This document shows positions 6,244 to 48,151 of a stretch of DNA of 64,000 nt, in pieces. A program made the position numbers and the translations under genes. Source of the DNA: Schmidtea polychroa (lineage: Eukaryota); assembly GCA_044892525.1 (NCBI GenBank), contig CM097885.1, positions 30,692,001 through 30,756,000 on the forward strand. The letters are read 5' to 3'. The notes beneath the pieces are model-generated. The model had not been told where the DNA came from, searched no databases, and saw only the letters and a program-made list of their open reading frames with translations. Numbering within the stretch: position 1 is the stretch's first letter; every line of letters begins with the position of its first letter.

Positions 6244-6773
6244 GTTATATTCGAAAACATAATATTATCGAGATAAGATGGAAAATATATTCAAGTAAAA
6301 CTCATAAGGGTAATTGGGTAATTTTTTTTAATTGTTTTAACATTTTATTTCTATAATTGAATTAATTTATTTTCGAAATTAATAAATTTGAAAATTTTTT
6401 ATTTATATTAAAATATTTTTTAGATATTACTCTATATAAAGTCAAAATTTAGCTAAAAATTCATCATTTTGTTGGGATTATGTAAAATTCTACATGAATA
6501 AAATTTAAATATAATATTATTTAGTTAGATTGAAAAATTAATTTAAACTCAAAAGATGGAAAATCAAAATATTTGAGCAAAATTTAATGAAAACTTTAAA
6601 AATTTTAAAATAAATATTTTTTGGAGAAAGGTAAAAACAAATAAATTAATTTAAATTTAATATGTCTCCTCAGAGTGCGTTATTGGGAAAATACAAATTA
6701 ATTAATTAGTGAATCAATCATTTATTTTAGGTAACAAAATTGCCAAATTTGACAATCTCGAAAGAGGCGATAT

Positions 6774-6998
6774 TCAATCTTGATCTGTAATTAACGGAGA
6801 AAATAAAATATTCCAATCTGGATCTTCCGATTGAATCGGAATCAGGCTGAAACCTTCTGATAGATCCAGATTGCTCACCACGAATGATGATATTTTATCG
6901 CCGGAATCTGTCGGATAAAGGAGACTTTCATTTTCACATGAAACATTTTGTTTGCGACAACAAATCCATTGAAATAACTGAGATAAACTTTTGAACAT
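6774..6998 (-). CDS. 74-aa hypothetical protein (copy 1 of 3)
   Basis: ORF intact in three copies downstream of the RING gene; N-terminal amphipathic segment ending in WICCRK. Confidence 0.4.
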   Translation of the reverse strand: MFKSLSQLFQWICCRKQNVSCENESLLYPTDSGDKISSFVVSNLDLSEGFSLIPIQSEDPDWNILFSPLITDQD

Positions 6999-7234
6999 TT
7001 CTTGAATATGATGGTAATTAATTAATAGATAAACAAATAAATTTGCGGATATAAAATATTATCATTATTACGCAACAGTTGTGGTATATGATTGGCCAAT
7101 TGCGGAAATGATTTATGCGCCACTACCGCACTAATTAATTGATGAATAAAACAAAGGACAAACATTATAAAATTATTAAAATATATTTAACAAAATATTG
7201 TATTATCTAATTCGACCTCTCATCAAAAACATAT

Positions 7235-7903
7235 TTACAACCCAATGTCGGATAATAATAGTTCAATGAGGTTTTCATAGCCTTTTGTGTAAAATGACAT
7301 GGTCAAATGGCGCATGTTTCCTTTCATATTCATTTGATAATTTGATCCGATAATATTTCTATGATATTTTTTCTTGAGAGACAGATTCCAATAACTATCT
7401 TTTGAAACTTTTAAGGACGTCATAGGTAATTTAATCAACTCATTCTTTTCAGCATCTATGTGGAGTGATTGGAATAAATTTTCGTGACAAACAATATTGA
7501 TGGTAGTCGAATCGAGGTCGGTTTCATAAGAGTGGACATTTGTACCGATATATTTCTCAAAAAGGAAATGACTGAATAGTAAAATGATTTGAAGGTCAGA
7601 CTTATACCAAAAGACTTCAGTTCGAATGATTTGATGTTTGTCGAGAATGTTGTAATATAAAAAGCTTCTAAACGGACACCTGTCCAACGGACATTTGACA
7701 TCAAAGAAATCGGAAGAAATCAGTTGTATCATACAATGATGGTGATAATAATGTTTATCACAGCACTCAGGTCTGACAATATTCGAAGAATAATCCAATT
7801 CTTCAAGACATATTGAGCACTCACCTTCGATTTCACAAACTTTATTTTCACTTAATGTGTAACCGTACTGGTCGGTCATGCATCGATTTTCAGTATCGAT
7901 CAT
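7235..7903 (-). CDS. intronless RING-H2 finger protein (copy 1 of 3)
   Basis: CSIC-x14-C...H..H..C...CPLD RING-H2-like pattern; TATATAA about 55 bp upstream. Confidence 0.75.
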   Translation of the reverse strand: MIDTENRCMTDQYGYTLSENKVCEIEGECSICLEELDYSSNIVRPECCDKHYYHHHCMIQLISSDFFDVKCPLDRCPFRSFLYYNILDKHQIIRTEVFWYKSDLQIILLFSHFLFEKYIGTNVHSYETDLDSTTINIVCHENLFQSLHIDAEKNELIKLPMTSLKVSKDSYWNLSLKKKYHRNIIGSNYQMNMKGNMRHLTMSFYTKGYENLIELLLSDIGL

Positions 7904-8363
7904 TGTTTTATATTGTTTTAATTGGATGTGAGTAATGATGATAAAGGGGAAAGCTTATATAGACCAGCTGTTGATTACGCAATCATAATATGGAAAATTA
8001 ATAAGGAAATTCCCATTCTGAGGAAAATTTTATTTTATTCAAACTGTCTTGATGCATTTATTCGATTTTTATTTTTTCTGTAGTCCATCGTACAATGGCA
8101 GTGGCGGATCCATATGGAGGTGATTGGGCGATCGCCCCCTTATATTACACCAAATACCACGTTCTCTATAGTGGTGGTTGGCGTGGAGAGCGATTTCTCT
8201 CACATATTCACTCACCGATTTACTCATCATCACATTTATTCATTTTTCATGAATTTGAAATTTATTTGGAAATTTATTTTAGTCATTTTACAAATGGCTT
8301 TCAAGTAATTTTTTTTATTTAAAGTAAATTTTAAGACTTGAATTCTGATCCATATGAAATATG

Positions 8364-16590: not shown

Positions 16591-16933
16591 TTAAACATCA
16601 AATTTTTTGTACAATAACCAAGCTAAACAATGTTGACCACATGTTTGGGTCAATGGATTTTGAAACATAGTTTTATTATACACAATAGGTTTTCCCATTG
16701 TTTGTAGTTTTGATATCAACAAAGCAGGGTAATAAAAACCCATAGGATCGAACACGAATATATTACCAGGTTTCATATATATAGCTATCCAATGTTCTCC
16801 ACCAAGATGCGACGATTGAGTATTGACGATTATTGCTTGATTATTGCTCAAATATTGAATTTTATCAAGAGGAAAAACTCCAACAAATTCATTTCCCAAT
16901 ATCTGTTTTCCGATTTTATTGACCTGAACAGAA
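16591..16933 (-). CDS. adenain-like cysteine protease of outer Polinton, exon 2 (predicted exon 1 at 31426-31457)
   Basis: FVGVFPLD, GEHWIAI, FDPMG and Q...CGQHC catalytic motifs. Confidence 0.9.
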
Positions 16934-16940
16934 CTACTTA

Positions 16941-17928
16941 AGTAGTGTGTTTATATCCCTAACCAAAACAGCCCTCCCAAAAAAACATACCTCCATTACG
17001 CTTAAACCATTAGAAAAACAACCTAAAACTTATACTTTTATAGTATTTTAACCCTATATTTTGAAAACAACCACCCTTAATGGCTCTAACTGTTTTAATC
17101 TTTAAAGCCTCAAACTCAAAAGCTTCAAACTAAAAACATAAAGAGAATAGAAAAGAAAATGGTATTATGAAAAAGTTAGAGGGCTATTTTGGTTAGGGAT
17201 ATTAACACACTACTTGAGGATGTCAACTAGCAAGTTGCTATTTGACTAATTTATAATTTTATAAATCTTAATCTTGATGTCTTGAAGAATAAAAAATTTT
17301 ATGAAATAGTAAAACTGCTCTGAGAGGACAGTGGTATTTTTATTTTTTTTTTCACTGTCCTCTCAACAGTTTTTTTGATCCGGATCATTTTTTTATTCAA
17401 CCTCTTTCGTTTATCGAATCTCTTCCAATATACAAGCTGGCCAGACTCATACATCAGAATCAATTCGATAATAGCAGCACGCCTTATTATTCACTTCTCG
17501 CTCGAATACGATTTCATCGGCGTTTTAAGCGTGCTGCTCGAAAGTACAAATGAATTCGAAAGCGAATCCGAAAGAGGTCCGAAAACAACCAAGAAATAAA
17601 TGTGCACATTATGGGATCGATCCGGGGGTGTTCGAAAGACTGGTGGCGATAATTACCGGTTCGCCACCACACCCGTTTCAATAATTTTTTTTCATATTTA
17701 TGTTTAAAAAATAAAATAAATAAAAAAAAATAAAATATATAAAATAAAATAAAAATAAATAAAATAAAATATAAATCTAAGATACCTACACCATTTTCAA
17801 TATTATTTTCAAATTTTTAATATTATTTTATGTTGAAAAAAAACTAACCGTAGTTAGGATTTGAACCGCTATCTATTTGAACCACTGTGCCAGTCTAGCC
17901 CACTGCGCTATCTAGGTTTCAGATTTTT
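16941..17928 (+). repeat. left TIR of inner Polinton (~990 bp)
   Basis: Near-identical inverse of 30402-31389. Confidence 0.95.
17836..17917 (-). ncRNA. tRNA-like putative Pol III RNA gene (left TIR copy)
   Basis: Inverse copy of 30413-30494 with A box, B box and T-run. Confidence 0.55.
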
Positions 17929-17956
17929 TGTCATTTTTTAAATTTTTATTATAAAA

Positions 17957-19249
17957 ATGAATAATATAAATCTTAAAATTCAAGAAAAAAATAAATTAAA
18001 TCTTGATTATAATAAAGAATTTACTCATGAAATCAAGAAAAATGATGTACTTAAAATCTCGCCAACTTCAGGATCTATTGCAAACTTAAATCGTAGGGGT
18101 GATATAGTTTTTCAATCTCTTCAAACATCAAACCCTATAGATATTTGTAATGCTAAATTATATTATAAAATTGAATTAGAAATTGAAGCAAACAAAGATA
18201 TAACCCTAGAAAATAATTTCTTTCCAAATTTATTCAACAACATGAGATTAAAACTAGGATCATCAGAAATTGAAACTGTTTTATATCCAGGAGTATATTC
18301 TACAATGTTAAATTTTATTTTAACTGGTTGTGATTATAAAAATGAATATGGAGAATTATCAGGTTGGATTCCTGATGTTAATAAAGGTGATTTAGATAAA
18401 GATGGTTTAGATATAAATTATGGTTATTATAAAAGAGCTGAACTTTATAAATCTAAAAAATTTGAAGGTTATTTTGAATTAAAACACCTATTTGGATTCC
18501 TTCAAAACTATAACCGTATATTTCATAATGTTTTTATAGAATTAACCTGTAATAGAGTAGAAGGTGATAAAAGATTGTTCTATGGAGCTGCAGATACAAA
18601 AGCTAAATTAAAATTATCAACACTTGAATTGCATATACCTGAATGGACACTAAACCCACATTCTGAGATTAAACTCCTTGAAAGATTAAATTCCAACAAG
18701 TCTATAAATGTAAATTATTTAAATAGAATCTGTAGTGAATTTAGTATGACAGAGGGTTCAACATATTCTATAAAGGTGGCAAATTTAGCATACCGACCAA
18801 GATATATCTTGATTGGATTCAAAGAAACAGATCCATCATTTCAAAAAAATAACAATCTATTTATTCAAAAGATTGGAGATGATAATTTAAAAACAATCCA
18901 AATTCAATTAAATAGTTCTTATTATCCAATAAATAGAATGGAATTTAATATTGAAAATAATGAAAACATATTCTCATATCTAAATTATATTGAAACATGT
19001 TATGATTTCAAAGTTGAACCGCAATTAAGTTTAGAAGATTTCAAAAATTTATATTCTATATTTTGTATAAATGTTTCAGACCAAGATGATCGCCTAGCCA
19101 TAAATAATGTTGATGTTACACTTCATATAACAAAGGATTCTAATTTTAAAGCTAAAGTATATACATTAATATTAGAAGAAAAGAAAATAGAAATGAAATT
19201 ATATGGTGGAAAGATTTCAATTATTGAAAATGTTAGGGGAGATTCTTAA
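17957..19249 (+). CDS. major capsid protein (double jelly-roll) of inner Polinton
   Basis: 430 aa; NNFFPNLFNNMRLKLG..EIE, RPRYILIGF, LNSSYYP and YSIFCINVS segments typical of Polinton MCP. Confidence 0.8.
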   Translation: MNNINLKIQEKNKLNLDYNKEFTHEIKKNDVLKISPTSGSIANLNRRGDIVFQSLQTSNPIDICNAKLYYKIELEIEANKDITLENNFFPNLFNNMRLKLGSSEIETVLYPGVYSTMLNFILTGCDYKNEYGELSGWIPDVNKGDLDKDGLDINYGYYKRAELYKSKKFEGYFELKHLFGFLQNYNRIFHNVFIELTCNRVEGDKRLFYGAADTKAKLKLSTLELHIPEWTLNPHSEIKLLERLNSNKSINVNYLNRICSEFSMTEGSTYSIKVANLAYRPRYILIGFKETDPSFQKNNNLFIQKIGDDNLKTIQIQLNSSYYPINRMEFNIENNENIFSYLNYIETCYDFKVEPQLSLEDFKNLYSIFCINVSDQDDRLAINNVDVTLHITKDSNFKAKVYTLILEEKKIEMKLYGGKISIIENVRGDS

Positions 19250-19266
19250 TATTTTAACATTTTAAA

Positions 19267-20649
19267 ATGTCTTTAAATAAACCCTATTGGAGATGTGAAA
19301 CATGTAATTGTCAAGTTACAAGACATCATAAAGCAAGTCATTTAAAAACTAAAAAACATATAGGAGTCGATATTACACGAACAGGAGGTGACATGCAATC
19401 TTCAAAAACAACATCTTCAATATTAAAACCTTTTACTACAGAAAAATATCCAGGTGAAAGACATTTATTTAAACACAACTATACTGGACCAGGAACAAGA
19501 TTAGATATTAGATTAGATGAAAATAATAATCCTAAACAAGGAGAAGAACCAATAAATAGAATTGATCAAGCAGCTTTAAAACATGATATTGCTTACAACT
19601 CAGAAGATCTTAGAGATAGACATGTTGCAGATGTGAATTTAATACATGATTTAAATAGTATCCAAAATCCATCAACCCAAGAAAAGATTCAAAGTGCTCT
19701 AGTTAAATTAGCAATGAAAGGTAAAATCTTTTTTGGAGCCGGACTTCCTAGAATAGCAAAAGATGTTGCTAATAAAAAGATCCTCGAACAAGCAGACATT
19801 GAAAGATCCCTCGAGAATATATCCAAGACTAGTTTACAAACCCAAACAGAATCAGAAATAAAATATGCCAACGAATTGCACCATGAATTTAGAAAAAATA
19901 AAAAATATTTAAAAGTTCAAGTACATGAAAAAGATCAAACATGGTCTGCAGATTTAGTCTTTATGCCAACCAAATCATCAGACCCTGAAAAATATAAAAT
20001 AATTTTAACAGTAATAGATTTATATACAAGATTTGCTTTTGCAAGATGTTTAGAAAATAAAACAGGATATTCTATTACAGAAGCATTTGAAAATATATTT
20101 GAACAATATCAAAGAATTCCAAAATATTTATGGTGTGATAAAGGAACAGAATTTTATAACAAAGTTTTTACAAAGTTTTTAAATGAAAATGATATTAAAT
20201 TATATTCAACAGAAAACGAAGGAAAAGCAGTTGTGGTTGAAAGATTAAATAGAACATTAAAAAATAAAATGTGGAAATATTTTACTGCTATTGGAAAACA
20301 AAAATGGAACAATGAATTGTTACAAAAGATTGTAAATGAATATAATAATGATGTACATAGTTCTATAAAATCAACACCTTTAAATGCTTCCTTGAATCCT
20401 TTGGAACTCATGAATCCTGTTGAAAATGATGTTATTGAAAAACCAAAGTTTAAAATTGGTGAACGAGTAAGAATATTTAAATACAAAAATAAATTTGAAA
20501 AAGGATTCACAGCAAAATGGACAAATGAAATTTTTATTATAAATAAAATACATTATACAACTCCAATAACATATAGCATCATTGATTTAAATAATGAAAA
20601 AATATTAGGTAGATTTTATAATAATGAGTTACAGAAAACAGATTTTTAA
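19267..20649 (+). CDS. zinc finger - parvovirus-type PLA2 - retroviral-like integrase fusion
   Basis: CETC...H...H finger; NYTGPGT...RIDQAALKHDIAY PLA2 motif; WSADL, CDKGTEF and VERLNRTLK DDE motifs. Confidence 0.9.
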   Translation: MSLNKPYWRCETCNCQVTRHHKASHLKTKKHIGVDITRTGGDMQSSKTTSSILKPFTTEKYPGERHLFKHNYTGPGTRLDIRLDENNNPKQGEEPINRIDQAALKHDIAYNSEDLRDRHVADVNLIHDLNSIQNPSTQEKIQSALVKLAMKGKIFFGAGLPRIAKDVANKKILEQADIERSLENISKTSLQTQTESEIKYANELHHEFRKNKKYLKVQVHEKDQTWSADLVFMPTKSSDPEKYKIILTVIDLYTRFAFARCLENKTGYSITEAFENIFEQYQRIPKYLWCDKGTEFYNKVFTKFLNENDIKLYSTENEGKAVVVERLNRTLKNKMWKYFTAIGKQKWNNELLQKIVNEYNNDVHSSIKSTPLNASLNPLELMNPVENDVIEKPKFKIGERVRIFKYKNKFEKGFTAKWTNEIFIINKIHYTTPITYSIIDLNNEKILGRFYNNELQKTDF

Positions 20650-20660
20650 GTCGACAAGCC

Positions 20661-21455
20661 CTAAAACAAACTTTTCCATATTTCAGCTTCTTCTCTATCC
20701 AAATAAATATAATTATATTTTTCTCTCCAATGATTATCAACAAACATATCAAACATATTCTTATCAGGTTCAACATTTGAAAATAAATCATTATAAATCA
20801 TATTCTTATCACGGCGATCTAATTTAAAAAATATAAAACAATTGGAATTATTTTTTATTGAATTTTTATCTAAAGCATAATATGTTTGAGATATATAAAT
20901 AACATTACAATTATTATGTCTTCCTCTTGTAAAGTAACTCTTTTGGATCTCTTGATTTTTCATGTTGACAACATCATCAAATATAACTAGATTCTTTTTA
21001 TCTTTAGGAAGTAAATCACAATGTAAAACATCTTCAGGTTTATTAGAGAATAAAACTTGAATTGCTTGCCCCTCCCTCTCTTCACAAATATAATCATTTT
21101 TATTACTAATATCTGATTCTAAAATCATTTCCTTATACCAATCAACCATATCACAAGGTTGAAAAACTTCTTCAGGACATCTATGTTGATTTTTAAAAAT
21201 ATCAATTATTGCTTTTTTAGTTAATTTATTTTCAAATCCACATTTCAAAAGTTGTAATTCTGGTTGATTTATGGTTGTAGAGTAAAAGATTAAATTATTA
21301 TAATCTAAAAAATCATCTTCAAGCAACATCCTCAAAAGAAGTACATTCTTTCCACATCCAGAAGAACCAACAATTAATAATCTAAAATTATCAGGAAATA
21401 CTTTATTATTAAATTTACTCTTATGTCTATTTAAAATTGGTTTCCAAATATCCAT
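20661..21455 (-). CDS. A32/FtsK-like packaging ATPase of inner Polinton
   Basis: Walker A GSSGCGKN, Walker B LVIFDD, TRGRHNN...ISQTY. Confidence 0.92.
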   Translation of the reverse strand: MDIWKPILNRHKSKFNNKVFPDNFRLLIVGSSGCGKNVLLLRMLLEDDFLDYNNLIFYSTTINQPELQLLKCGFENKLTKKAIIDIFKNQHRCPEEVFQPCDMVDWYKEMILESDISNKNDYICEEREGQAIQVLFSNKPEDVLHCDLLPKDKKNLVIFDDVVNMKNQEIQKSYFTRGRHNNCNVIYISQTYYALDKNSIKNNSNCFIFFKLDRRDKNMIYNDLFSNVEPDKNMFDMFVDNHWREKYNYIYLDREEAEIWKSLF

Positions 21456-21470
21456 TTTATTTATTATAAA

Positions 21471-22013
21471 ATGACAACTGAAGAATCTTTGCAAGAATTA
21501 ATAAATTCAAATAAAAATAAATCAGTAGTAATTGATGGTAAAAAATATTTTATTGGAAAACATGTAAAAGAACAAGTTAAAGAACGTATTAGAGAAGGTG
21601 GCATTCTTCCATTAGCTGCTTTAATACCTGCAATCATTGCTGCTTTATCAGGTGCTGCTGGAATAGCTGGAGGAATTGCAACTACAGTTCAAAAAGCTAA
21701 AGAATCTCAAAAGACAGACCTTGAAAAAGAAAAACTACAAACTGAAATCGAGAAAATGAAGGTAGGGCAAGCTAAAGGAAAATGTCTTAATCCATATCAG
21801 GGCAAAGGTCTCTATCTTGATCCATATAAAGGCAGAGGTTTAAATGATTTTTTAAAAAATCAAATTTCAACATCTGAATCTTTATCATCAAAAGATAAAG
21901 ATGATTTTAAAAAAATATGTAAATCTTTAAAGAATGGGTGTATTTGTAAAATTGGAGGAACTCCACAGAATAGTGGTAAAGGATTGTATTTAAAACCTTG
22001 GAAGGAACAATGA
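21471..22013 (+). CDS. virion core/membrane-active precursor-like protein
   Basis: REGG|ILPLAALIPAIIAAL hydrophobic helix and repeated GKGLYL motifs resembling adenain sites. Confidence 0.6.
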   Translation: MTTEESLQELINSNKNKSVVIDGKKYFIGKHVKEQVKERIREGGILPLAALIPAIIAALSGAAGIAGGIATTVQKAKESQKTDLEKEKLQTEIEKMKVGQAKGKCLNPYQGKGLYLDPYKGRGLNDFLKNQISTSESLSSKDKDDFKKICKSLKNGCICKIGGTPQNSGKGLYLKPWKEQ

Positions 22014-22035
22014 TACCATTTTTAATACCATTAAA

Positions 22036-22875
22036 ATGGTATATGAAGAAAGATTAGCACTTTTAAAAAAATTACAATCAGAACAAAACAAGTATAATAA
22101 AAAAGATACAACTCAACAAACTGAATCTATAATATTAAATGAGGTAATCCAACAACAACAAGGACCAACAATTAAAGCTATAGAGAGACTTAAAACTATA
22201 GAAGCTCCTCTAACCCCCGAACATAAAGCTATAGAAGCCCCTAGAAAGGAATTACTAAGATTAGTAGGAAAAAAACGTAGAAATAATATTGATTTAGAAG
22301 AAGATGAATTTCTTTCAAGATTAACACCTCATAAGACTCCAATTAATTTTAAAATTAATACATCACTAGCTCCATCAATTATACCTACTATAGGTTATGA
22401 TCCTAGAGGTTTTCAAACAATAACAATTAATAATCAAAAATTTTATATATATTTAAATTCAGAAAATAATCCATCGATTATTTCAACAAATACTTTTATG
22501 AATAGAGAGCGTGTTGACATTGAACTTTCAGATGATTTTCATGGATTAATTTCTGGATATATTCCAGATGGTGTCAAGAATGAAGAAATTGATAAATATT
22601 TAAACTTAATAAAATTAATAAATGGTAGCCCTAAAGCAAAACATATTCAAGATTTAAAGAAATATAAAGATAGAGATAAAACAGGCCCTCAAATTCAAAT
22701 CATTGAAGGAGAAGGCCTCAACCCTATAAATCTTTTTATTGAATTAAGAAAACTATTAGCAGCTAAAAAAGCAGGACATAATAATTTAGATTCTGATATT
22801 TTAAAGATTTCTAAAGATTTGTTAAAACAAGGAATAATTTCAAAAGATAAATTTAATAAGTATACGAAGTTATAA
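22036..22875 (+). CDS. conserved Polinton hypothetical protein
   Basis: 279-aa ORF with GEGL and LLAAKKAGHNN C-terminal motif. Confidence 0.6.
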   Translation: MVYEERLALLKKLQSEQNKYNKKDTTQQTESIILNEVIQQQQGPTIKAIERLKTIEAPLTPEHKAIEAPRKELLRLVGKKRRNNIDLEEDEFLSRLTPHKTPINFKINTSLAPSIIPTIGYDPRGFQTITINNQKFYIYLNSENNPSIISTNTFMNRERVDIELSDDFHGLISGYIPDGVKNEEIDKYLNLIKLINGSPKAKHIQDLKKYKDRDKTGPQIQIIEGEGLNPINLFIELRKLLAAKKAGHNNLDSDILKISKDLLKQGIISKDKFNKYTKL

Positions 22876-22897
22876 ATACGAAGTTATAAAATACAAA

Positions 22898-23338
22898 ATG
22901 GCTTCAATATTAGATTTTTTAAAAACATTTGGAATAAATGCAAAAACAAATTTTGATTTAAAAGATTATGCAGATTATTTAAATTTAAAAATTAAAATAT
23001 TAATGAACGATGAATTATATAAAATTGGAGGTACTCCCCTTAGACGAAGTCCCCAGAATATAATAATCAATTATCAAAATTCAAATGAGAAAGGATCTCA
23101 TTGGGTTTGTATATATAATAAATCTATATACTTTGATTCTTTTGGGATTAAACCCACTAAAGAAGTTGAAGATTATCTCTCGGACTACACTTTTAATTCT
23201 TTACAAGTTCAACCTAATAATACTAAAATATGTGGTATTTTAAGCTTATATGTTTTGTATAGATTGAATAAATCTAAAGGAGAAGGTTTCACTTCCTTAA
23301 TCCAAGAAATTTATAATGATTTAAAATCTTTACTATGA
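22898..23338 (+). CDS. adenain-like cysteine protease of inner Polinton
   Basis: GSHWVC, YFDSFG and Q...CG motifs. Confidence 0.9.
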   Translation: MASILDFLKTFGINAKTNFDLKDYADYLNLKIKILMNDELYKIGGTPLRRSPQNIIINYQNSNEKGSHWVCIYNKSIYFDSFGIKPTKEVEDYLSDYTFNSLQVQPNNTKICGILSLYVLYRLNKSKGEGFTSLIQEIYNDLKSLL

Positions 23339-24167
23339 AAATGGAGCTTCGCAACCTTCCGGAAGATTATTTAAAAAAAATAGCAAACATAATGTCACAT
23401 AAATATTCAAGAAGTTTATTAATAAATTCAAAAGAATCAGATTTTACTATAAATTTTGAAGATTCAATAAATTTAGATCAAGATTTAAATTATGAATTAG
23501 GATTCTTGTGGTTTAGCTGTTTTAATACTATTTTTAATATAAATAATAATAATAATAAATTTATTATATTTAAGAGTGATAATAGAAACCCCCTTTTGTT
23601 TCATTTATTCTCCCTAGTATATTGGAAAATAGTGAATATGAAAAGATTACTTCTAAGGAATACACCATTATAACAATCGAACCAGGATCATATGAAATAA
23701 CAGATTTAGCTAAAACAATTTTAAAAGAAACAAATGGAGAAGTAGAAATAAAAGCAGATATTCAAACTTCAAAATGTATTACAACTTTAAAAAATGTTGG
23801 ACTTGGTGTTACTACTTCTAGTTTCTTTCATAATATTTTAGGTTTTGAAGTCAAAGAATATCCACCATCAACCATTAAATCTAAAAATATTATACAATTA
23901 ACAAATACAAATTCTATAAATATAGAGTGTGATTGTATAATGGGATCATACATTAATGGTAAACATGCAAATATTTTATATTCCTTTCCTTCTAATACCG
24001 TGCGAGTTGGATATAAAATAGTTGAAAGAATGAATCCCCCAAATTATTTACCTTTATGCAGAAAAAATATAATGGATATTAGTTTTAGAATTGTTGATGA
24101 AAATGGGGAATTAATTAATTTTAATGGAGAAAATATTTCAATGTGTTTACATTTGAAACAAGTCTAG
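23335..24167 (+). CDS. minor capsid (penton-like) protein, split into two frames near 23575-23620
   Basis: DFTINFEDSINL, IEPGSYEI, INIECDCI.GSYING and ISFRIVDENGELINFNGE motifs. Confidence 0.75.
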
Positions 24168-24190
24168 ATTTTATTTTTATTACTATAAAA

Positions 24191-25174
24191 ATGAATTATG
24201 CTAGTTATAATAAGTTTGGATTATATAATGATGGATTAAAAGATGAAGATGTTATATCTCTTACAGAAAAGAGATATGTCAATGAAAGAGGTGATTCAAT
24301 GAAAGGAGATTTAATTTTAAATGGACACAAGATAAAAGATTTATCTTTTCCAACTGATGATTCTGATGCAGTTAATAAAAAATATACTGATTTAACAACA
24401 ACAAGAATTGAAAGTTTATTAGCAACAAAAATTGATTCAATAGAATCAAAGCTTAATAATATCGAACAACGATTTAATGATAAATTTGACAAGTTACAAA
24501 GTCTGTTAACTGAACAAGTTGTAAAGTTAAATACTAGCATATTAAATTCTAAAGATAAACAAATTATGAATACTAAATTTAATACAATATATAATATAAT
24601 AAATGAGATGATTACATCATTTAATAAAAGAATTTCAAATTTAGAGTCTCATGGAACACACATTAACACCACACATAGTATTAGAAAAAGAGCTGCTGAA
24701 TTAGAACAAAATAAAACATTATTACCCCATACATATAAACATTTTATAGAACCAAGTTTAATAACAACAAACAGTAAAGAATGGGGTGTTTTTATGGTTG
24801 TAAAGATTATTGATCCTTATTTCTTTTTGTTTGATGATAATAATGAAAGAATGAAATGGTTTGTGAAATGTGATTATAATAGTAAGCTTGAAAAGGGTGA
24901 TGTTATAATGACTAGTTATGATTTACCACACGGAGATTGGTATGTTAATACTCATTCACATGGACTACATAAAGTTAAAAGTAAGAATATTATTTTTAAA
25001 AGCACACTTGTACAATATATAGATTTAATATTTTATGAAAAAAAGTTTGATGTTGATGAAGTTCGTAAAGCATTGAGAGAATTGTATAAAGATATCCTCT
25101 CAACAAGAGTTTCTTTTGATATCCGAGTATTGGTGCCAGATGGTGCTCAGAAGAATAAAGTCTTATTTTTTTAA
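24191..25174 (+). CDS. putative fibre/spike-like protein
   Basis: MKGDLILNGHKIKDL..P....DAVNKKY tail-fibre-like repeat followed by a coiled coil. Confidence 0.5.
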   Translation: MNYASYNKFGLYNDGLKDEDVISLTEKRYVNERGDSMKGDLILNGHKIKDLSFPTDDSDAVNKKYTDLTTTRIESLLATKIDSIESKLNNIEQRFNDKFDKLQSLLTEQVVKLNTSILNSKDKQIMNTKFNTIYNIINEMITSFNKRISNLESHGTHINTTHSIRKRAAELEQNKTLLPHTYKHFIEPSLITTNSKEWGVFMVVKIIDPYFFLFDDNNERMKWFVKCDYNSKLEKGDVIMTSYDLPHGDWYVNTHSHGLHKVKSKNIIFKSTLVQYIDLIFYEKKFDVDEVRKALRELYKDILSTRVSFDIRVLVPDGAQKNKVLFF

Positions 25175-25182
25175 TTATTAAA

Positions 25183-25812
25183 ATGGAAGAAGTAAGAGAA
25201 GAAAAAATTTACCCAGAATTGAGATCATCAGGATATTATTCTTCCAAGGCCTCGGCTCCCACAGAACTTGAAATTATGAGAGTAAAAGAATTTAAATCAG
25301 AAACCTTACATTTACAAGATTTATTAAAGCATTATAAAAAAATTAAAAATAGATGGAATAAAGGGAATACAGTTTTAAAAGTTATAGGTTATTCTTTAGG
25401 ATTTGCATCTGCAATATTAACAGTTATTTTACCCATAACTTTACCAGTTGTTACTCTTTATTTTTTTTTGCACCTGTAATACTTGGAAGTATTTCTGTAG
25501 CTGATGGTTTCTTAACTGAAATAGTTTCATTATCTTATACTTCTAAAAAGAAAAGTTTATATCGTGAAGTTTGTTTATCAATAGAATTAGGAATCTCTAA
25601 ATTATTTTTATTTCAATTAAAAGCTTTAGAAGATGGAATCTTAACTGATGATGAAATAATGAAATCAAATCAAATAATACAAGATATTAAAAATGAGGTT
25701 ATAAGATTAAAAAGTGCTAATGTTATAAGTAATGAATATTCTAAAAAAATTAAACGAGAAAAATGGTTAAAGAATTCTTACTTATAAAATGGATGAATTT
25801 TTAAAAAAGTAG
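25183..25812 (+). pseudogene. Polinton transmembrane protein, frameshifted near 25465
   Basis: IYPEL...HYKKIKNRW then hydrophobic helices; reading continues in another frame after a T-run. Confidence 0.5.
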
Positions 25813-25881
25813 ATCAAGTTGCTATAGTTGCTTAAATTAATTGTCGACATTTTATTATTAAAAAATTAAATATCGTTGGTT

Positions 25882-28800
25882 TCAGTTATGGTTGAAAGCC
25901 AACCTATGAATCATTAATTTATGATCTTTAAATTCTTTATCACTTAGACCTTTTATATATTCAGGATCAGTATTAAAATATTTAAGTTCTAAACATATAG
26001 GATTAAAAACTTGAGAATATAAAGGTTTCTCGATTTGTCTCTCGGGATAAATAATTTCAACATTATAAATATCAAGATCAGTAATCTTTGTATCATATAA
26101 CTTATTCAAACTAGCAAGATTTTTTATTATCGGTATTAAATTATTTCCTATAGGAAGAGTTGTCTTTAAATCACTTAGTATGAATCTTTTATCATCATAA
26201 TTTGATAATGATACTTTTTGGGATTCTATCAAGTAAATATCATGGTTTTCACTTTTAAGTTGATGTATTTCATCAATTTTATCTTTATGACCTGGGTTTA
26301 ATGTATCTATATAATCTTGATGAGAAAGATTCTTTGCAACTGATCTCTGTATTCCTTTACATCTGTTATCCTTTACAGGTTTTTCCTCTTGTCCCTCAGG
26401 TCCTTTAGGGAATATAGGATATTTATATGAAATAATTTCCTCTTTTTCTGGGGTTTAAATATAATTTCTCGAGTTTCAAATTTAGGATTTGTAAATGTTT
26501 CGTATGAATATTGTTTAGCACGAATAAATATTCCATTTTCTATAGGAGTAAAAGGTTTTTCATCTTTAAATGAAAATAGTTCTCCAGATGAATTTATTAA
26601 ATTTGAAAGTATAGGATTTTCAGTCATATCTCTTTGTAAATCATGAGTTCTTATTGTTAAAAACATTGAATCTGTATCCATTGCATGCATTGATATATTA
26701 GAACCATATATAGGTTGTAAGATGTTATAATATGTTTCATACATTTGTAATTTTGAAAGTTCTAAAATTGTAAACCCTATAAATATTGGTTTATTGTATG
26801 TTTTCTCAAAATTCTTTAGTTCTATTGCAGTAAGATTTTCAGAAAATACTTGTGCGTTTTTAAATGTAGGCTTTCCTAGCATACGATTATAACGCTTAAT
26901 GTCTTTGGTAGTATTTGTTAGGAGTTCAATATGAATATATTTATCAACATTCTCCATTGTCTTCCCAAAGACTGAATTATTTAAAAGTTTATAATTATTG
27001 TCTTTAAAAAGGTTACCTTCTCTTTTTGCAATGTTTCGACACCTAATGTTCTCCTCGATAAAAGCCTTCATGAATGGTCTCTGTTTAAATCTTATGACAC
27101 TATGAACTTTTTTTAATATCATACCTCGTGAAAGATAAAACTGTAAAAGTCTATAGTGACAAAGATAAAACCTTCGATCTTTTTGATCACAAAGAAGTTT
27201 CATTGTTGGAGGTTTATCTTGTGAGATTTGCCATTCAGAAAGTTCGTTGATATCAATCTTTCTTCTTACAGGAGCTAAAGGGAAATATCTTGTTCCTGAT
27301 TTTATATCATCTGGATATAATAAGTCACATTCTACAAAGTAACCTATTGGAGAATCTTTAGGAGTTGAAAGTATTTCTTTCATAAGGTCTTTTAAGGATT
27401 CTTCTGAGGAATCTTCAGAGTATATTTCATGAAAGTCACTCATTGGTAAATATTGAGTCATAATTCCTGAATATAAAGCTGTTGCATCTATATAAAGTAT
27501 AAATATAGGATTTTTCATTGTTTCTAATAATTCTTTTAATTCCTCATTGTTAATTTTCATATATGGATCATCAGGGTGTTTAGAGAGTCTTCGGCTAGTA
27601 GTTATTGCATTTCTAGCTTTTATTTCTCTATTCCCCATTACTGAAGAGACTCCTCCTCTAATGTTTGTTTTAATTTGGTTAAACATATCGAGGTTAGTTA
27701 AAAGATCTATAATTTTATCACCTTCTTCTATATTTGAAGTCCAAATGGTATATAATAAAGTATCCCAAGCTAAAGAGGGTGCTGTTATATAATTGTAAGG
27801 TTTAAGAACAAAAGATTTTGTAAATTCTTCAAAGCAATCTGCTAGAATATAAACATCCAAGGATAAATACATACTTGTATATTCTCCTAAAGTTTTACAC
27901 TTGAATAATTCCCACATTTTATTTGCTCGAGAATATTCTTGATCTGTAATATGATATTTTTGAAGTTGTGAAGAGAAATCTTCTTGGCTAGGAAGACTTG
28001 TTTCATTATATTTTTCAAACGAGTCAACATAGTCATAAGGATATATTCCTTTTGCTAAGCATGTAGGATATTCTTCTGGAGGAATATTATTTTTTTCCAA
28101 GAATTCTCGAGTGATTTTAAAATTTTCTGGTTTCATTGTTTTTGCTACTGCATCTAGAGACATTTGGAGAAAGTTTAACGAGTCTATAAATTTTAATTTT
28201 CCATATTCAACTGATTTATATTTTTCCTTTGTAAGTCCTATAACTTTGAAAGAGTTTTTAGCATTTTCTGCTAAATGTTTAATAAATAGATGTATGTCAT
28301 AACCAAAACGATTATGAAATATAACAGGTACAAATTTAGGAGTATGGCAATTAAGATTGCAATTTTTATGAGCTGCTCCTCGATAATTATTTTCCTTTTT
28401 TAAATGATCATGATCGGGGACTTTTATGTTTGAAGATTGTCTTTCATGAAACATTCTTTGTTCTTCTTCTTCAATAGTTTCATTATTTGGAGGTTCCTCA
28501 TGGAGTTGATCCTCAAATGGTTGTTTACACATCCACCAATTTGAAGAATTTTCATATTCTTCCCATTGTTCGGTTGAAAGGTTTATTTCATATTTTGTTT
28601 TTAATACTTTAAATATTTCATGTTCTAGATCATTTATACTTTTAGTAAAATGATTTAAAACATCTTCTGAAGTTCCTTGAAATGTATATTCTCTAGATTC
28701 TATGAGTTCAGGATAATTACTTTTAAATAATAGTTTATAAGCAGAAGGTAATTGTTTAGTTTTTTTAACACTATTAGGTTTATTTCTTTTTCTTAGAAAG

Positions 28801-30332
28801 GCTTTCATCCTCTCTGGTTTCATCTTCTCTCCTGAGGAGTTCCATGAATCCATGAGTTTATTTTTTTCTATTATTTTTAAATATTGGTTAACCAAATCTT
28901 GTTTACGATTTATAGATTCAAAGTCTCCATAAACCACTCCTACTGTTTGTAGTAAATTTGAAAAGTTTTTAAAATTCATCTTGGGATCTGTAGGCATGTC
29001 AATTAAAGCTGGTTCATCTTTTTCACAAAATCTTGTATGTTTAATCATAGAGTTTTTAGTTGTTGAATAATGAAGACATCTTTTACATGTTCCTCCTCCA
29101 CTAGTTGGATTCTCTGGTGATGTAAAAGCTTGAAAGTTTTTTATTAAAACATAATGTTGATTATTTTTTTGTTCCAAGATTAAAAGATATATTTCTCTAG
29201 GGTTTTCGTTATCTTGTACTTCGTTATCCTTGGTTCCACTATCAGAAATGTAAATTGGAATAATTTCTCTACTTTTAATATTTTCCCCTTTAACCCGTTC
29301 ATAAATATTAATTTTAAGATTATTTAAACTTTTAAATTTTGGAATGTCTTCTAGTTTCATTGGATGTTTGAATTCTTTGGGAAATATTAATTCATTTTCA
29401 TATTGTTTGTATTTTGAAACTCTTTGAGGGTTTGATTCTTGAGGGTGTAAATGTGCAAGTATTGACCAGATGAAACATTTGTTATCATTATTCTGTACGT
29501 TTATAACATTTTTAGATGTAAAGGGTGTAGGAATATAAGATTTAGGATTAGGTGGTAATCCTCTCCAATAATCAATCACTAAAGTTTGGAAAGAGTTGAA
29601 TACTAAGTTTGAATCTCCTAATTCATTTTCTACTTCCTCTTGTTTTGCTTCTGCTGCTTTAATTATTTCTTTGATGGTTTTATCAAATCCTTTAGTTGAA
29701 AATAAATATTTAAAGGGTATTCCAATTTCAATATCTAAAGGAGTTGTCTTTTCTTCTGCTCCTCGCCAGTATTTTGCTTTGATTATAATTTTATATTTTA
29801 TAACATTATACCTTGTCAGTTTATAATTTTTTAAAGCTTCAGTGAAAGCATTTTTAATATTTTTTTTATTTTTATTTATATATTCTCCAGGAGTTGCAGG
29901 TCCATTAATTTTTAATTGAAATTCATCTATATGATAAAAATTATCCCAGTTATATTTTTCTCTTTCAACATGATCAGGTTCTCCTTCTGAATGACATTCC
30001 TCATCGTCAGAATTTTGTTTTTTATTTTTACATTCTTTTATATGTTCTAAATAATAGAAATTTAGTTTTGTTGAAAAGTTACAATGAGGACAATATATTT
30101 CTCTATTTTTCCCAATACAATTTTCAAAATGTTTATTATATCCAGAATGTAGAAATCTTCCTTTACATTTAGGACAAAGTTTTGAATTTGTATCATTAAG
30201 ATTATTTTCTTTTAATAAATGAGCTTTCGATTTTAAGTCAGAAATTAATCCAGTTTTATTTTTAAAAACTTTATTACAAATATTACAATTCATTTTTAGA
30301 AAAAATTTTTTTATTGGATACCCTGTTTTCAT
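25882..30332 (-). CDS. protein-primed DNA polymerase B of inner Polinton with N-terminal zinc fingers; one frameshift near 26375-26450
   Basis: YGDFES, YIDATALYS, KLLNNSVFGK and MDTDS motifs; C-terminal CKGI...DDKR lies in a second frame. Confidence 0.95.
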
Positions 30333-30401
30333 TTTATTTTTTAAATTTATATATTATTCATTTTCATAATGTGACAGTCTAATTTTTAGAATTTTATAAA
30401 T

Positions 30402-31389
30402 AAAAATCTGAAACCTAGATAGCGCAGTGGGCTAGACTGGCACAGTGGTTCAAATAGATAGCGGTTCAAATCCTAACTACGGTTAGTTTTTTTTCAACAT
30501 AAAATAATATTAAAAATTTGAAAATAATATTGAAAATGGTGTGGGTATCTTAGATGTATATTTTATTTTATTTATTTTTATTTTATTTTATATATTTTAT
30601 TTTTTTTTATTTATTTTATTTTTTAAACATAAATATGAAAAAAAAATTATTGAAACGGGTGTGGTGGCGAACCGGTAATTATCGCCACCAGTCTTTCGAA
30701 CACCCCCGGATCGATCCCATAATGTGCACATTTATTTCTTGGTTGTTTTCGGACCTCTTTCGGATTCGCTTTCGAATTCATTTGTACTTTCGAGCAGCAC
30801 GCTTAAAACGCCGATGAAATCGTATTCGAGCGAGAAGCGAATAATAAGGCGTGCTGCTATTATCGAATTGATTCTGATGTATGAGTCTGGCCAGCTTGTA
30901 TATTGGAAGAGATTCGATAAACGAAAGAGGTTGAATAAAAAAATGATCCGGATCAAAAAAACTGTTGAGAGGACAGTGAAAAAAAAAATAAAAATACCAC
31001 TGTCCTCTCAGAGCAGTTTTACTATTTCATAAAATTTTTTATTCTTCAAGACATCAAGATTAAGATTTATAAAATTATAAATTAGTCAAATAGCAACTTG
31101 CTAGTTGACATCCTCAAGTAGTGTGTTTATATCCCTAACCAAAATAGCCCTCTAACTTTTTCATAATACCATTTTCTTTTCTATTCTCTTTATGTTTTTA
31201 GTTTGAAGCTTTTGAGTTTGAGGCTTTAAAGATTAAAACAGTTAGAGCCATTAAGGGTGGTTGTTTTCAAAATATAGGGTTAAAATACTATAAAAGTATA
31301 AGTTTTAGGTTGTTTTCTAATGGTTTAAGCGTAATGGAGGTATGTTTTGTTGGGAGGGCTGTTTTGGTTAGGGATATAAACACACTACT
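30402..31389 (-). repeat. right TIR of inner Polinton
   Basis: Inverse of 16941-17928. Confidence 0.95.
30413..30494 (+). ncRNA. tRNA-like putative Pol III RNA gene (right TIR copy)
   Basis: A box TAGCGCAGTGGG 30420-30431, B box GGTTCAAATCC 30463-30473, T8 terminator 30487-30494; ACCTAG/CTAcGGT acceptor-like stem. Confidence 0.55.
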
Positions 31390-31457
31390 TACTTAAATAA
31401 ATCCAGAGTATAAAAAACAACTTACTCCATGACAACGTTTTGTGTTTCAATATACAT

Positions 31458-36559: not shown

Positions 36560-36997
36560 ATGTTAGCAAATATAAATTATCGAGGAAATTTTGATGTATC
36601 AAATATGAGGTTCCCACCAGGGAAACCCCAGCAAATTATCGATAGAAGCGGGAAATATCCGATAATATTTTTCAAGACTGGTAAATGTCGAATCATGGGA
36701 TGTAAGAAATCTTTGGATATTAATAAATTACAATATCGAATAAATAATATTATAATCCAATCAATTACCGTTACTATGGATATGGGACATAGTATCAATC
36801 TATATAACATGTCGAAAAAATGTGATTGTATGTTTGAATCGGAATTGTTTCCGGCACTAAGACTATTAAAATATAACCCTATATGTGTCAACGTGTTTGC
36901 TAGTGGAAAGGTTGTCATGTTGGGGTTGAGAAATTTGGAGTATAGAGAATTTGTTGACAATGTTCGAAATGAGATAATTTCATTGGTCGATTTCTAA
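36560..36997 (+). CDS. TATA-binding-protein-like protein
   Basis: Two TBP-like repeats: IFFKTGKCRIMG and FESELFPALRL...VNVFASGKVVMLG. Confidence 0.8.
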   Translation: MLANINYRGNFDVSNMRFPPGKPQQIIDRSGKYPIIFFKTGKCRIMGCKKSLDINKLQYRINNIIIQSITVTMDMGHSINLYNMSKKCDCMFESELFPALRLLKYNPICVNVFASGKVVMLGLRNLEYREFVDNVRNEIISLVDF

Positions 36998-40972: not shown

Positions 40973-41945
40973 GATATGAGAGTTCTTAAATATTACTTTT
41001 AATCAACAGTATAATTATAAATTATTTTTAATTAATTTTCAGGGTCTTTTTACGAATTTTATGACATTTATCTTGGAATTATTTCGACAAAATGTGAGTC
41101 CGATATATTTTTAATTATAATTAATTAAATAAATCAATCACCAAAAATATGTATTTTGTTAAAACATTTTGGGAAAACTCGCTGATTAAAATAATTTTTT
41201 TTCTGAGCTCAATATGAGGAGATTCTTTCTAGAAATCAAAAATGGATTGAAAAGATATTGAACCAAATTCATCTGCTCTTGATATTTTCATTAAAAATAT
41301 AATTTTAAAAATTTTCAACGATCTTTTTTTTCTAAAAATTGTCTAAACTAAAGTTATTATAGAAAGAAACGTATCTCATCGTTACATTTCTACGAATCAA
41401 AAGTTTGTATGTATTTTTAGTATGTGTTGCGTTTGTGTGCAGTTATTAATTTTCTTCCACTTTTCAGATTTCTATAGTATAAGATGTATCTCACTGAGCT
41501 ATAAATGAGAACATCAACGTGAAATCAAAGTAAGTATGTATGTTTCTATAATGTAAGATTATTGATTTTTTTTGTTATATTATAGGAAACGGTTCTCAGT
41601 GGTGTTTGGTGTATTTAGAAAGAAATTTCTTTAGCGATTTTTAATTGGCTTTTGCAGCACTTTATAAAGAAAGTATGTAATGTCAACAAAAATTTTCAAA
41701 TTTTAATGTAGATATACACTGTTGTAAATTGAATTTTGAAGTAATTTGATGAAGACTAGAGTTTAGTTGTTACACTAGTAACGTACATAAAACCTTGATT
41801 TGTTAATTATTTTAACAATTTATAACACAAAATCTAGTTTACAATTTCCCGTCTTCGCAAAATGCTCAATCACATTTTCAACATTTACTGCAATGTCTCT
41901 GTGTACATTAAGTATGGCTAATCCGACTAGTCTGTTTTCTGTCAT
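40973..41945. repeat. inner part of left arm of large inverted duplication
   Basis: Inverse of 42227-43232 apart from a ~30-bp indel. Confidence 0.95.
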
Positions 41946-42214
41946 GGTATGGTTAAATTTTATTACAGATTTATAATGGCATCATTTTATAATAAGTTAA
42001 GAGGAAAAGGAACCATCGTACAGGGTGGATTCAGACCTTCTAGTAAGGAGGGCCGATTTTTAGGTTTTAGTGGTAACCACAGGCAAACCCACAAATCGTA
42101 AAACTTGTTTACTTTTTTTTTCTTTGAGATTCATTATTATTGATTATAGAAACAACCTATAATACTTTTTATTATAAACTGATATTAAGACAGTAGAAGA
42201 ATGATGCTCAAACT

Positions 42215-42352
42215 TTGAGAACGCGAATGACAGAAAACAGACTAGTCGGATTAGCCATACTTAATGTACACAGAGACATTACAGTAAATGTTGAAAATGT
42301 GATTGAGCGTTTTGTGAAGTCGGGCAATTGTAAACTAGATTTTGTGTTATAA
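42215..42352 (+). pseudogene. hAT transposase dimerisation-domain fragment
   Basis: LRTRMTENRLVGLAILNVHRDITVNVENVIERF translated manually. Confidence 0.7.
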
Positions 42353-43686
42353 ATTGTTAAAATAATTAACAAATCAAGGTTTTATGTACGATACTAGTGT
42401 AACAACTAAACTCTCTAGTCTCCATCAAATGATTGTATTTCAAATTTTTTTAATTATTAATTACTTCAAAATTCAATTTACAACAGTGTATATCTACATT
42501 AAAATTTGAAAATTTTTGTTGACATTACATACTTTCTTTATAAAGTGCTGCAAAAGCCAATTAAAAATCGCTAAAGAAATTTCTTTCTAAATACACCAAA
42601 CACCACTGAGAACCGTTTCCTATAATATAACAAAAAAAATCAATAATCTTACATTATAGAAACATACATACTTACTTTGATTTCACGTTGATGTTCTCAT
42701 TTATAGCTCAGTGAGATACATCTTATACTATAGAAATCTGAAAAGTGGAAGAAAATTAATAACTGCACACAAACGCAACACATACTAAAAATACATACAA
42801 ACTTTTGATTCGTAGAAATGTAACGATGAGATACGTTTCTTTCTATAATAACTTTAGTTTAGACAATTTTTAGAAAAAAAAGATCGTTGAAAATTTTTAA
42901 AATTATATTTTTAATGAAAATATCAAGAGCAGATGAATTTGGTTCAATATCTTTTCAATCCATTTTTGATTTCTAGAAAGAATCTCCTCATATTGAGCTC
43001 AGAAAAAAAATTATTTTAATCAGCGATTTTTCCCAAAATGTTTTAAAAAAATACATATTTTTGGTGATTGATTTATTTAATTAATTATAATTAAAAATAT
43101 ATCGGACTCACATTTTGTCGAAATAATTCCAAGATAAATGTCATAAAATTCGTAAAAAGACCCTGAAAATTAATTAAAAATAATTTATAATTATACTGTT
43201 GATTAAAAGTAATATTTAAGAACTCTCATATCTCATATGGATCAGAATTCAAGTCTTAAAATTTACTTTAAATAAAAAAAATTACTTGAAAGCCATTTGT
43301 AAAATGACTAAAATAAATTTCCAAATAAATTTCAAATTCATGAAAAATGAATAAATGTGATGATGAGTAAATCGGTGAGTGAATAGGTGAGAGAAATTGC
43401 TCTACACGCCAACTACCACTATAGAGAACGTGGTATTTGGTGTAATATAAGGGGGCGATCGCCCAATCACCTCCATATTGATCCGCCACTGCCATTGTAC
43501 GATGGACTACAGAAAAAATAAAAATCGAATAAATGCATCAAGACAGTTTGAATAAAATAAAATTTTCCTCAGAATGGGAATTTCCTTATTAATTTTCCAT
43601 ATTATGATTGCGTAATTAACAGCTAGTCTATATAAGCTTTCCCCTTTATCATCATTACTCACATCCAATTAAAACAATAAATAACA

Positions 43687-44355
43687 ATGATCCATTCTGA
43701 AAATTTATGGGTGACCGACCAGCACGGTTACACATTAAGTGAAAATAAAGTTTGTGAAATTGAAGGTGAGTGCTCAATATGTCTTGAAGAATTGGATTAT
43801 TCTTCGAATATTGTCAGACCTGAGTGCTGTGATAAACATTATTATCACCATCATTGTATGATACAATTGATTTCTTCCGATTTCTTTGATGTCAAATGTC
43901 CGTTGGACAGGTGTCCGTTTAGAAGCTTTTTATATTACAACATTCTCGACAAACATCAAATCATTCGAACTGAAGTCTTTTGGTATAAGTCTGACCTTCA
44001 AATCATTTTACTATTCAGTCATTTCCTTTTTGAGAAATATATCGGTACAAATGTCCACTCTTATGAAACCGACCTCGATTCGACTACCATCAATATTGTT
44101 TGTCACAAAAATTTATTCCAATCACTCCACATAGATGCTGAAAAGAATGAGTTGATTAAATTACCTATGGCGTCCTTAAAAGTTTCAAAAGATAGTTATT
44201 GGAATCTGTCTCTCAAGAAAAAATATCATAGAAATATTATCGGATCAAATTATCAAATGAATATGACAGGAAATATGCGCCATTTGACCATGTCATTTTA
44301 CACAAAAGGCTATGAAAACCTCATTGAACTATTATTATCTGACATTGGGTTGTAA
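43687..44355 (+). CDS. intronless RING-H2 finger protein (copy 2)
   Basis: Near-identical to 7235-7903. Confidence 0.75.
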   Translation: MIHSENLWVTDQHGYTLSENKVCEIEGECSICLEELDYSSNIVRPECCDKHYYHHHCMIQLISSDFFDVKCPLDRCPFRSFLYYNILDKHQIIRTEVFWYKSDLQIILLFSHFLFEKYIGTNVHSYETDLDSTTINIVCHKNLFQSLHIDAEKNELIKLPMASLKVSKDSYWNLSLKKKYHRNIIGSNYQMNMTGNMRHLTMSFYTKGYENLIELLLSDIGL

Positions 44356-44591
44356 ATATGTTTTTGATGAGAGGTCGAATTAGATAATACAATATTTTGT
44401 TAAATATATTTTAATAATTTTATAATGTTTGTCCTTTGTTTTATTCATCAATTAATTAGTGCGGTAGTGGCGCATAAATCATTTCCGCAATTGGCCAATC
44501 ATATTCCACAACTGTTGCGTAATAATGATAATATTTTATATCCGCAAATTTATTTGTTTATCTATTAATTAATTACCATCATATTCAAGAA

Positions 44592-44816
44592 ATGTTCAAA
44601 AGTTTATCTCAGTTATTTCAATGGATTTGTTGTCGCAAACAAAATGTTTCATGTGAAAATGAAAGTCTCCTTTATCCGACAGATTCCAGCAATAAAATAT
44701 CATCATTCGTGGTGAGCAATCTGGATCTATCAGAAGGTTTCAGCCTGATTCCGATTCAATCGGAAGATCCAGATTGGAATATTTTATTTTCTCCGTTAAT
44801 TACAGATCAAGATTGA
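44592..44816 (+). CDS. 74-aa hypothetical protein (copy 2)
   Basis: Near-identical to 6774-6998. Confidence 0.4.
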   Translation: MFKSLSQLFQWICCRKQNVSCENESLLYPTDSSNKISSFVVSNLDLSEGFSLIPIQSEDPDWNILFSPLITDQD

Positions 44817-48100: not shown

Positions 48101-48150
48101 CAACATTCTCCCACTTTTCTGCCCCTTGAGGATATCCCATCAAATTTTCT
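45113..48150 (-). pseudogene. Gypsy pol (PR-RT-RH-IN), frameshifted near 46060
   Basis: LLDTVA, YLDDILI, DTDAS, HHCC region and GQIERQF motifs. Confidence 0.92.
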
Positions 48151-48151
48151 G

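Follow-up and report, generated by a model that had tools for sequence, protein, structure and literature searches.

The window analysed here, a 64,000-nt stretch of Schmidtea polychroa contig CM097885.1, contains a 14,449-bp element at 16941-31389, with TACTTA on both sides and terminal inverted repeats (TIRs) of approximately 985 bp. By every core test, 16941-31389 is a Polinton/Maverick: it encodes a protein-primed family B polymerase (pPolB), a retroviral-like (rve) integrase, a double jelly-roll (DJR) capsid protein and an ATPase, and it has a 6-bp target-site duplication (TSD) and TIRs with AGT-AGT ends. Two papers give a 6-bp TSD, TIRs of 100-1000 bp and a terminal tandem repeat of 1-3 bp as hallmarks of Polintons/Mavericks (PMC4196379, PMC4028283). 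The 14.4-kb length, the TSD, the TIR length, the 3-bp terminal tandem repeat and the gene set (pPolB, rve integrase, ATPase, capsid and probable protease) are all shared with these elements; what differs is that the full terminal 36 bp are present in inverted orientation within each TIR. Each TIR thereby begins with a short cassette bounded by an outer and an inner tip. The features are as follows.

16935-16940: left TSD, TACTTA; empty site found in 4 of 4 runs
16941-16976, plus strand: left outer tip, the working end, with the AGT-AGT terminus and C at tip position 29; faces inward
16977-17178: cassette interior, 202 nt, non-palindromic, with two AAAACAACC motifs (17015, 17064)
17179-17214, minus strand: inner tip of the left end, embedded and inverted; outward-facing, position 29 is T
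17215-17925: left TIR remainder, with hairpins at 17318-17366 and 17400-17730 and a third AAAACAACC at 17582
17957-19249, plus strand: double jelly-roll major capsid protein (PF21738, E 5e-27; 41 homologues)
19267-20649, plus strand: retroviral-like integrase with an N-terminal PLA2-like domain (PF00665, E 2.3e-12; PF08398, E 5e-9)
20661-21455, minus strand: A32-like packaging ATPase (PF04665, E 3e-8)
22898-23338, plus strand: probable adenain-like cysteine protease (Atlas feature score 0.96-0.97)
23335-24167, plus strand: probable gene for the minor capsid protein, split here between two frames; no profile match
25882-30332, minus strand: protein-primed family B polymerase, pPolB (PF03175, E 1.3e-13)
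26373-30332, minus strand: long ORF of pPolB; a further open stretch lies in another frame at 25882-26454
30405-31116: right TIR remainder, from the TIR alignment
31117-31152, plus strand: inner tip of the right end, embedded; outward-facing, position 29 is T
31354-31389, minus strand: right outer tip, the working end, C at position 29, from the tip search
31390-31395: right TSD, TACTTA, matching the left TSD
8364-40972: outer Polinton-like host element with AGTAGT termini and an imperfect 6-bp TSD

The candidate at 22898-23338 has no Pfam or PDB match and resembles Atlas clusters in which Peptidase_C5 occurs on 19% and 62% of the members; it is probably an adenain-like protease. From its position and from the gene sets of Polintons, we take 23335-24167 to be a probable minor capsid gene. 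Several frames are broken in the window copy, including the C-terminus of pPolB and the probable minor capsid gene. The whole element is inserted within the outer Polinton-like element at 8364-40972, which has its own pPolB, integrase and AGTAGT ends.

Anatomy and folding of the embedded tip

The left outer tip is the 36-mer at 16941-16976, and its inverted copy at 17179-17214 is identical at 34 of 36 positions, the mismatches being at tip positions 12 and 29. At the other end of the element the arrangement is mirrored, with an inner tip at 31117-31152 and an outer tip at 31354-31389 that are 35/36 identical and mismatched at position 29. The inner tip thus occupies TIR positions 239-274, some 240 letters inside each end. 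The original prediction of a 274-bp cassette bounded by inverted 36-bp tips is borne out on both sides, the right cassette measuring 273 bp. In dinucleotide-shuffled TIRs (n = 300) the best inverted match was 22/36 and the mean 18.3, compared with the observed 34. When the first 24 tip bases were searched with up to 5 mismatches allowed, only these four copies were found in the 64-kb window, with no additional solo tip or cassette. Neither cassette contains an ORF of at least 70 aa from ATG.

The inverted arms end abruptly at 36 bp. Just past the arm, 12 of 30 positions match in register (p about 0.1), and the 202-nt interior is not a palindrome, with 24 of 101 in-register matches overall (p 0.91); an origin from a decayed palindrome is rejected on these figures. 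Position 29 is C in both outer tips and T in both inner tips, which indicates that the arms are not freely exchanged, and one further change, at 17203, is private to the left inner tip of the window copy. Outer and inner tips have 28 exact bases in common. The TIR pair shows 7 differences across 986 columns, and because both cassettes belong to this one pair, they represent one event rather than two. A motif chosen post hoc, AAAACAACC, is a variant of tip positions 25-33; all 6 of its matches in the window lie inside the two TIRs (0.78 expected in the whole window), and its orientation is identical in the cassette interior and the TIR body.

In terms of strand, the left outer tip and the right inner tip are on plus, the left inner tip and the right outer tip on minus. 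The body between the cassettes begins with non-tip sequence and has no tip of its own. No TSD surrounds either cassette, and the sequences beside each cassette's two sides differ. The proposal that the inner tips supply an integrase site or a second origin directed inward is not upheld, in that they face outward and the TSD is found at the outer tips only; because of this orientation, initiation at an inner tip would copy 274 nt and then stop. Retroviral-like integrases are not known to cleave at internal sites. The right inner tip repeats the left outer tip in direct orientation at a distance of 14,176 bp, and the left inner and right outer tips form a second such pair; both window cassettes have the same orientation, with the outer-type tip outside (2 of 2 ends unflipped). 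Given this geometry, inversion of a cassette or its excision as a mini-Polinton, both suggested originally, would be feasible.

Fold-back of each end, also part of the original prediction, agrees with computed stems of about -36 to -40 kcal/mol. As a single strand the cassette folds at -39.9 kcal/mol (z -6.93), and 0 of 200 shuffles folded equally well. In the computed structure, the 3' end can pair with the internal copy in a stem of 35/36 bp at -40.5 kcal/mol, which would offer a primer. The full TIR panhandle, at about -1173 kcal/mol, is far more stable than the local stem; the 36-bp stem would be expected to lose to it at equilibrium and could form earlier.

The embedded tip in family members and relatives

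Contigs from 4 of 22 public runs (three studies; one of the four runs may be the source sample) were aligned to 16669-17688 at 88% likeness. The empty site, in which the left flank, TACTTA and the right flank are continuous, is present in 22, 6, 4 and 2 contigs across the four runs. This empty site, together with a TSD confined to the outer tips, identifies these as the integrated ends of the element. A different flank precedes 16941 in one contig of run X3, indicating another insertion. At 17203, the base that restores pairing is found in 37, 17, 37 and 2 contigs and accounts for nearly all depth, so that the usual inner tip matches at 35/36, bearing in mind that some of these contigs may be derived from the outer tip (41, 15, 34 and 0 contigs fit two places).

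Among the 32 pieces listed (of 24,770), four contigs from two runs and two studies cross the junction 17214/17215 between the inner tip and the TIR body. They cover 17080-17219 (8 other letters, 3 gaps) and 17146-17238 (10 other letters) in run X1, and 17134-17221 and 17207-17339 in run X3; they extend 5, 24, 7 and 125 letters beyond the junction, and all four continue into the TIR body. Bin coverage is 30/30 in three runs and 29/30 in the fourth. Since the junction also occurs in copies approximately 90% identical to the window, the trait is neither recent nor private. The original prediction had been staked on the inner tip not being absent from other family members; it is present there, joined to the TIR body, and these results confirm the embedded inverted tip as real and family-level.

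The several frame breaks in the window copy can reflect sequencing error, and none of the contigs listed attains a formal bridge, defined as 31 letters on each side of 17214/17215; both points would be compatible with an assembly artefact or a change private to the window copy. We nevertheless regard this explanation as highly improbable, and it is largely refuted by the presence of the structure at both ends with consistent outer and inner diagnostic bases, by the four junction-crossing contigs from two runs and two studies, and by the near-complete bin coverage in all four runs.

Three single contigs read as losses from the inner tip, of 26 bp in run X20, of 15 bp in run X3 and of the entire tip through a 179-bp skip in run X19. 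Loose ends at 16974 and 16981 mark diverged outer-end variants; the loose ends listed are 24 of 417, and there the flanks of other insertions are nearly absent even at the outer tip. The markers of a flipped cassette (16969 C>T and 17186 A>G) are absent from the 40 of 65 variant rows listed, in which flip junctions would be barely visible: with 28 shared bases and assuming 31-letter words, a flip junction would form a contig of about 32 letters with the marker at its edge. X1 and X3 have less contig depth over the cassette than over the TIR body, and X19 and X20 give a mixed picture, depth not being equivalent to copy number. In a diverged variant, an X19 contig with a joint from 17062 back to 16982 contains a tip-like stretch directly repeated in the cassette, and from this joint the end sequences of the family seem prone to duplication.

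Searches for relatives were made in sequence collections and in the literature. The tip pattern gave 0 matches in IMG/VR, the JGI metagenomes and GTDB. A generic cassette pattern gave three matches in IMG/VR, all of which cover only 9-mers and were discarded as chance. Capsid-related loci numbered 0 in IMG/VR and 15 in metagenomes; the 15 loci showed no BLAST similarity to the TIR and no tip-plus-inverted-tip arrangement (inverted repeats were viewed in 4 of 15), and most of them are short and probably without ends, hence uninformative on relatives. We found no description of an inverted terminal copy inside Polinton TIRs in a literature search that left subscription papers and Repbase mostly outside, so that this negative result is weak; the accessible parts of PMC6431247, 10.1101/2025.02.07.637071, PMC4150772, PMC11131425, PMC12220804 and PMC11296320 do not mention such an end structure.

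Origin and consequences of the embedded tip

We infer, with about an even chance of being right, that the embedded tip arose in an old copy-back accident, reached both ends through homogenisation of the TIRs and is now mostly a passenger. In an ancestor replicating by protein-primed strand displacement, the newly made strand would have folded back approximately 238 nt from the end and copied its own first 36 nt until the template ended at the terminal base, after which it would have rejoined the TIR. Panhandle-based TIR homogenisation would then have placed the new end on both sides; the panhandle is the standard homology-restoration model in protein-primed genomes, for which direct evidence is said to be lacking (PMC11886824). 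The present cost would be low, since the outward origin yields nothing beyond a by-product of 274 bp and the outer tip remains functional; for the latter reason the family could have spread while carrying the embedded tip. Side products predicted at low frequency are hairpins forming transiently on each displaced end, mini-replicons of 274 bp and, after recombination between the 36-bp direct repeats, solo cassettes with the original TSD. Haj-Ahmad and Graham reportedly described in 1986 a viable adenovirus 5 mutant with embedded ITRs, whose extra end was copied by panhandle repair. That mutant, a linear protein-primed genome in which an additional piece at the terminus places ITRs internally, is reported to be an unstable laboratory variant; the present case is a natural, integrated and fixed multi-copy family.

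In keeping with copy-back, the inverted copy stops precisely at the terminal base, the expected template end, and has exactly the size of the tip; the orientation of AAAACAACC shared by cassette and body agrees with a single ancestral TIR split by an insertion of 36 bp. Counting for it as well are the cassettes without a TSD of their own, the TSD lying at the outer tips only, and the three single contigs with partial or whole loss of the inner tip, which may be dead copies. The TIRs of the neighbouring outer Polinton contain no inverted tip (best match 14-15/30), so not all Polintons of this genome need one. Against copy-back, two template switches are needed, the ancestral form without the insert was not seen among the contigs examined, and the inner tip is still 35/36 although contigs of approximately 90% identity (X1) share the junction. 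At 10% neutral divergence, one difference or fewer has p 0.11, a weak hint of maintenance of the inner tip. Terminal palindromes are also fixed in whole subtypes of related elements, and a function has been proposed for them (10.64898/2026.07.28.741278).

A functional inner tip, which we think rather unlikely, would act either by fold-back of the 3' end that self-primes the second strand in a parvovirus-like manner or by looping out a circle between the 36-bp repeats, and either route predicts body-cassette-body molecules and flipped cassettes. The stem that either end can form, at -36 to -40 kcal/mol, and the fixation of the tip in the family at 35/36 are in keeping with this possibility, and the local hairpin, with its 202-nt loop, could precede displacement of the far TIR. 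Weighing on the other side are the far stabler panhandle, the unflipped state of both window cassettes and the 15 joints listed (of 42), none of which changes strand in a joint table that is largely blind to flips. Moreover, with a pPolB of its own and slide-back ends of the AGT-AGT type, the element needs no hairpin primer. In parvoviruses and AAV, the 3' end of a terminal hairpin folds back as a primer and flip/flop isomers follow; here, by comparison, the loop is long and unpaired, the polymerase is protein-primed, the window ends are unflipped and no Rep/HUH gene was found, there being no Pfam match to a Rep/HUH nickase at E<=0.01 in the 11 scanned ORFs of the element, 5 of which have no match at all. 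Nor does the end form a short-loop terminal palindrome of the hairpin-primed type, its loop being 202 nt and non-palindromic.

The closest precedent for the end structure is provided by Halocafeteria seosinensis, where a 2026 bioRxiv preprint describes palindromes at the TIR ends of four virophage subtypes and one PLV subtype (subtype 4), with a 52-nt palindrome in subtype 5 and mostly non-pPolB replication (10.64898/2026.07.28.741278). The two readings offered there are hairpin priming, proposed for both the virophage and the PLV palindromes, and accident; the preferential association of the palindromes with non-pPolB elements speaks against the former in our pPolB-encoding element (10.64898/2026.07.28.741278). 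Both cases share a fold-back at the very end of the TIR, beside the TSD, that is fixed in the whole subtype or family, and they differ in that the arms here are of 36 bp with a 202-nt loop in a pPolB Polinton. A screen of that type would miss the present case because its gap limit is 10, compared with the loop of 202 nt, and short-loop terminal-palindrome screens would overlook long-loop versions.

It is also conceivable, if unlikely, that the cassette is a non-autonomous mini-Polinton that was captured in the parent TIR, became its end and was copied to the other side. Such an element would be an internal deletion derivative with 36-bp TIRs, and solo copies would still move. The cassette alone does have the anatomy of a miniature element, with complete tips on both sides of a short non-coding unit and a unique interior, and Polintons here insert into Polintons, as the nesting of the inner within the outer element demonstrates. 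On the other hand, AAAACAACC has the same orientation in the cassette interior and the TIR body, all four contigs listed past 17214 enter the TIR body, and no older tip remnant was detected behind the cassette above chance (alignment to the outer element's tip, p 0.26-0.50); the missing TSD around either cassette is a weak objection, loss being expected under capture. In composite transposons such as Tn10 and Tn5, a core lies between a pair of terminal modules in inverted orientation, and each module has both an outer and an inner end. Capture would make the present element a composite in the manner of Tn10 with its IS10 modules, the difference being that the modules here are of 274 bp, non-coding and without a transposase of their own.

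How Polintons exit the chromosome and are converted to double strands is still a matter of models, including the racket model, and not of observation (PMC4196379, PMC11131425). There is a small chance, in our estimation, that the embedded tips provide a working exit route by which the Polinton, through the 36-bp direct repeats or the 3' fold-back, leaves as a circular or hairpin molecule whose junction contains one cassette. This would leave a solo cassette with the original TSD, much like the solo LTR of an LTR element: recombination between the direct repeats would retain the cassette at the site and free a circle with one cassette. Embedded origins could also release 274-bp mini-elements. 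A solo cassette with a TSD is by itself no proof of a mobile mini-element, since tip recombination would leave the same product; the check originally suggested, a search for solo copies with TSDs, did not separate the two.

A four-tip family with one diagnostic base predicts distinct products for each exit route, namely flipped cassettes, body-cassette-body junctions, solo cassettes with the old TSD and solo cassettes with a new TSD. The base at position 29 types every product as derived from an outer or an inner tip, and counts of these products in the assembly could test exit models without bench work. If the embedded tips do serve for exit, this base records each event and excision becomes readable from the assembly alone. 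If none of the predicted products exist, the structure is a frozen replication accident of modest significance.

Other features of the TIRs and the surrounding DNA

A Pol III-like unit lies at the inner end of each TIR and points outward, at 30420-30496 on the plus strand with its mirror at about 17835-17910 on the minus strand. From their consensus we take two of its motifs to be A-box-like and B-box-like; they are 43 nt apart, with a run of T after them. Matches to the exact B-box pattern in the window are confined to those two places (0.1 expected). ARAGORN found no tRNA and no Rfam family was matched in the unit, and the right TIR gave 7 Rfam matches, all far below gathering scores. The unit may represent either a gene of VA-RNA type or a site for TFIIIC. 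The TIR body hairpins at 17318-17366 and 17400-17730, with their mirrors in the right TIR, include a GC-richer multi-branch fold, and the fold of the whole TIR has z about -10, partly owing to the cassette.

The TIRs of the outer element consist of degenerate repeats rich in TGACTCA together with a long microsatellite of TAA/TAT, and in the aligned contigs this element is present at high copy without the inner insertion. It also contains a short TBP-like ORF at 36560-36997 (PF00352, E 1.6e-13). It sits in one arm of a fold-back-like repeat (6525-8363, 40973-45060), giving three levels of nesting; the fold-back arms are 6580-8365/43225-45010 and 40973-41945/42227-43232, with a RING-finger ORF. 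Further along the window, Gypsy-like RT/RNase H/integrase and gag ORFs occupy 45061-51433 on the minus strand, a degraded third pPolB, 67% identical to that of the outer element, is found at 57010-59363, and a near-perfect short fold-back of about 190 bp (93%) lies at 54998-55186.
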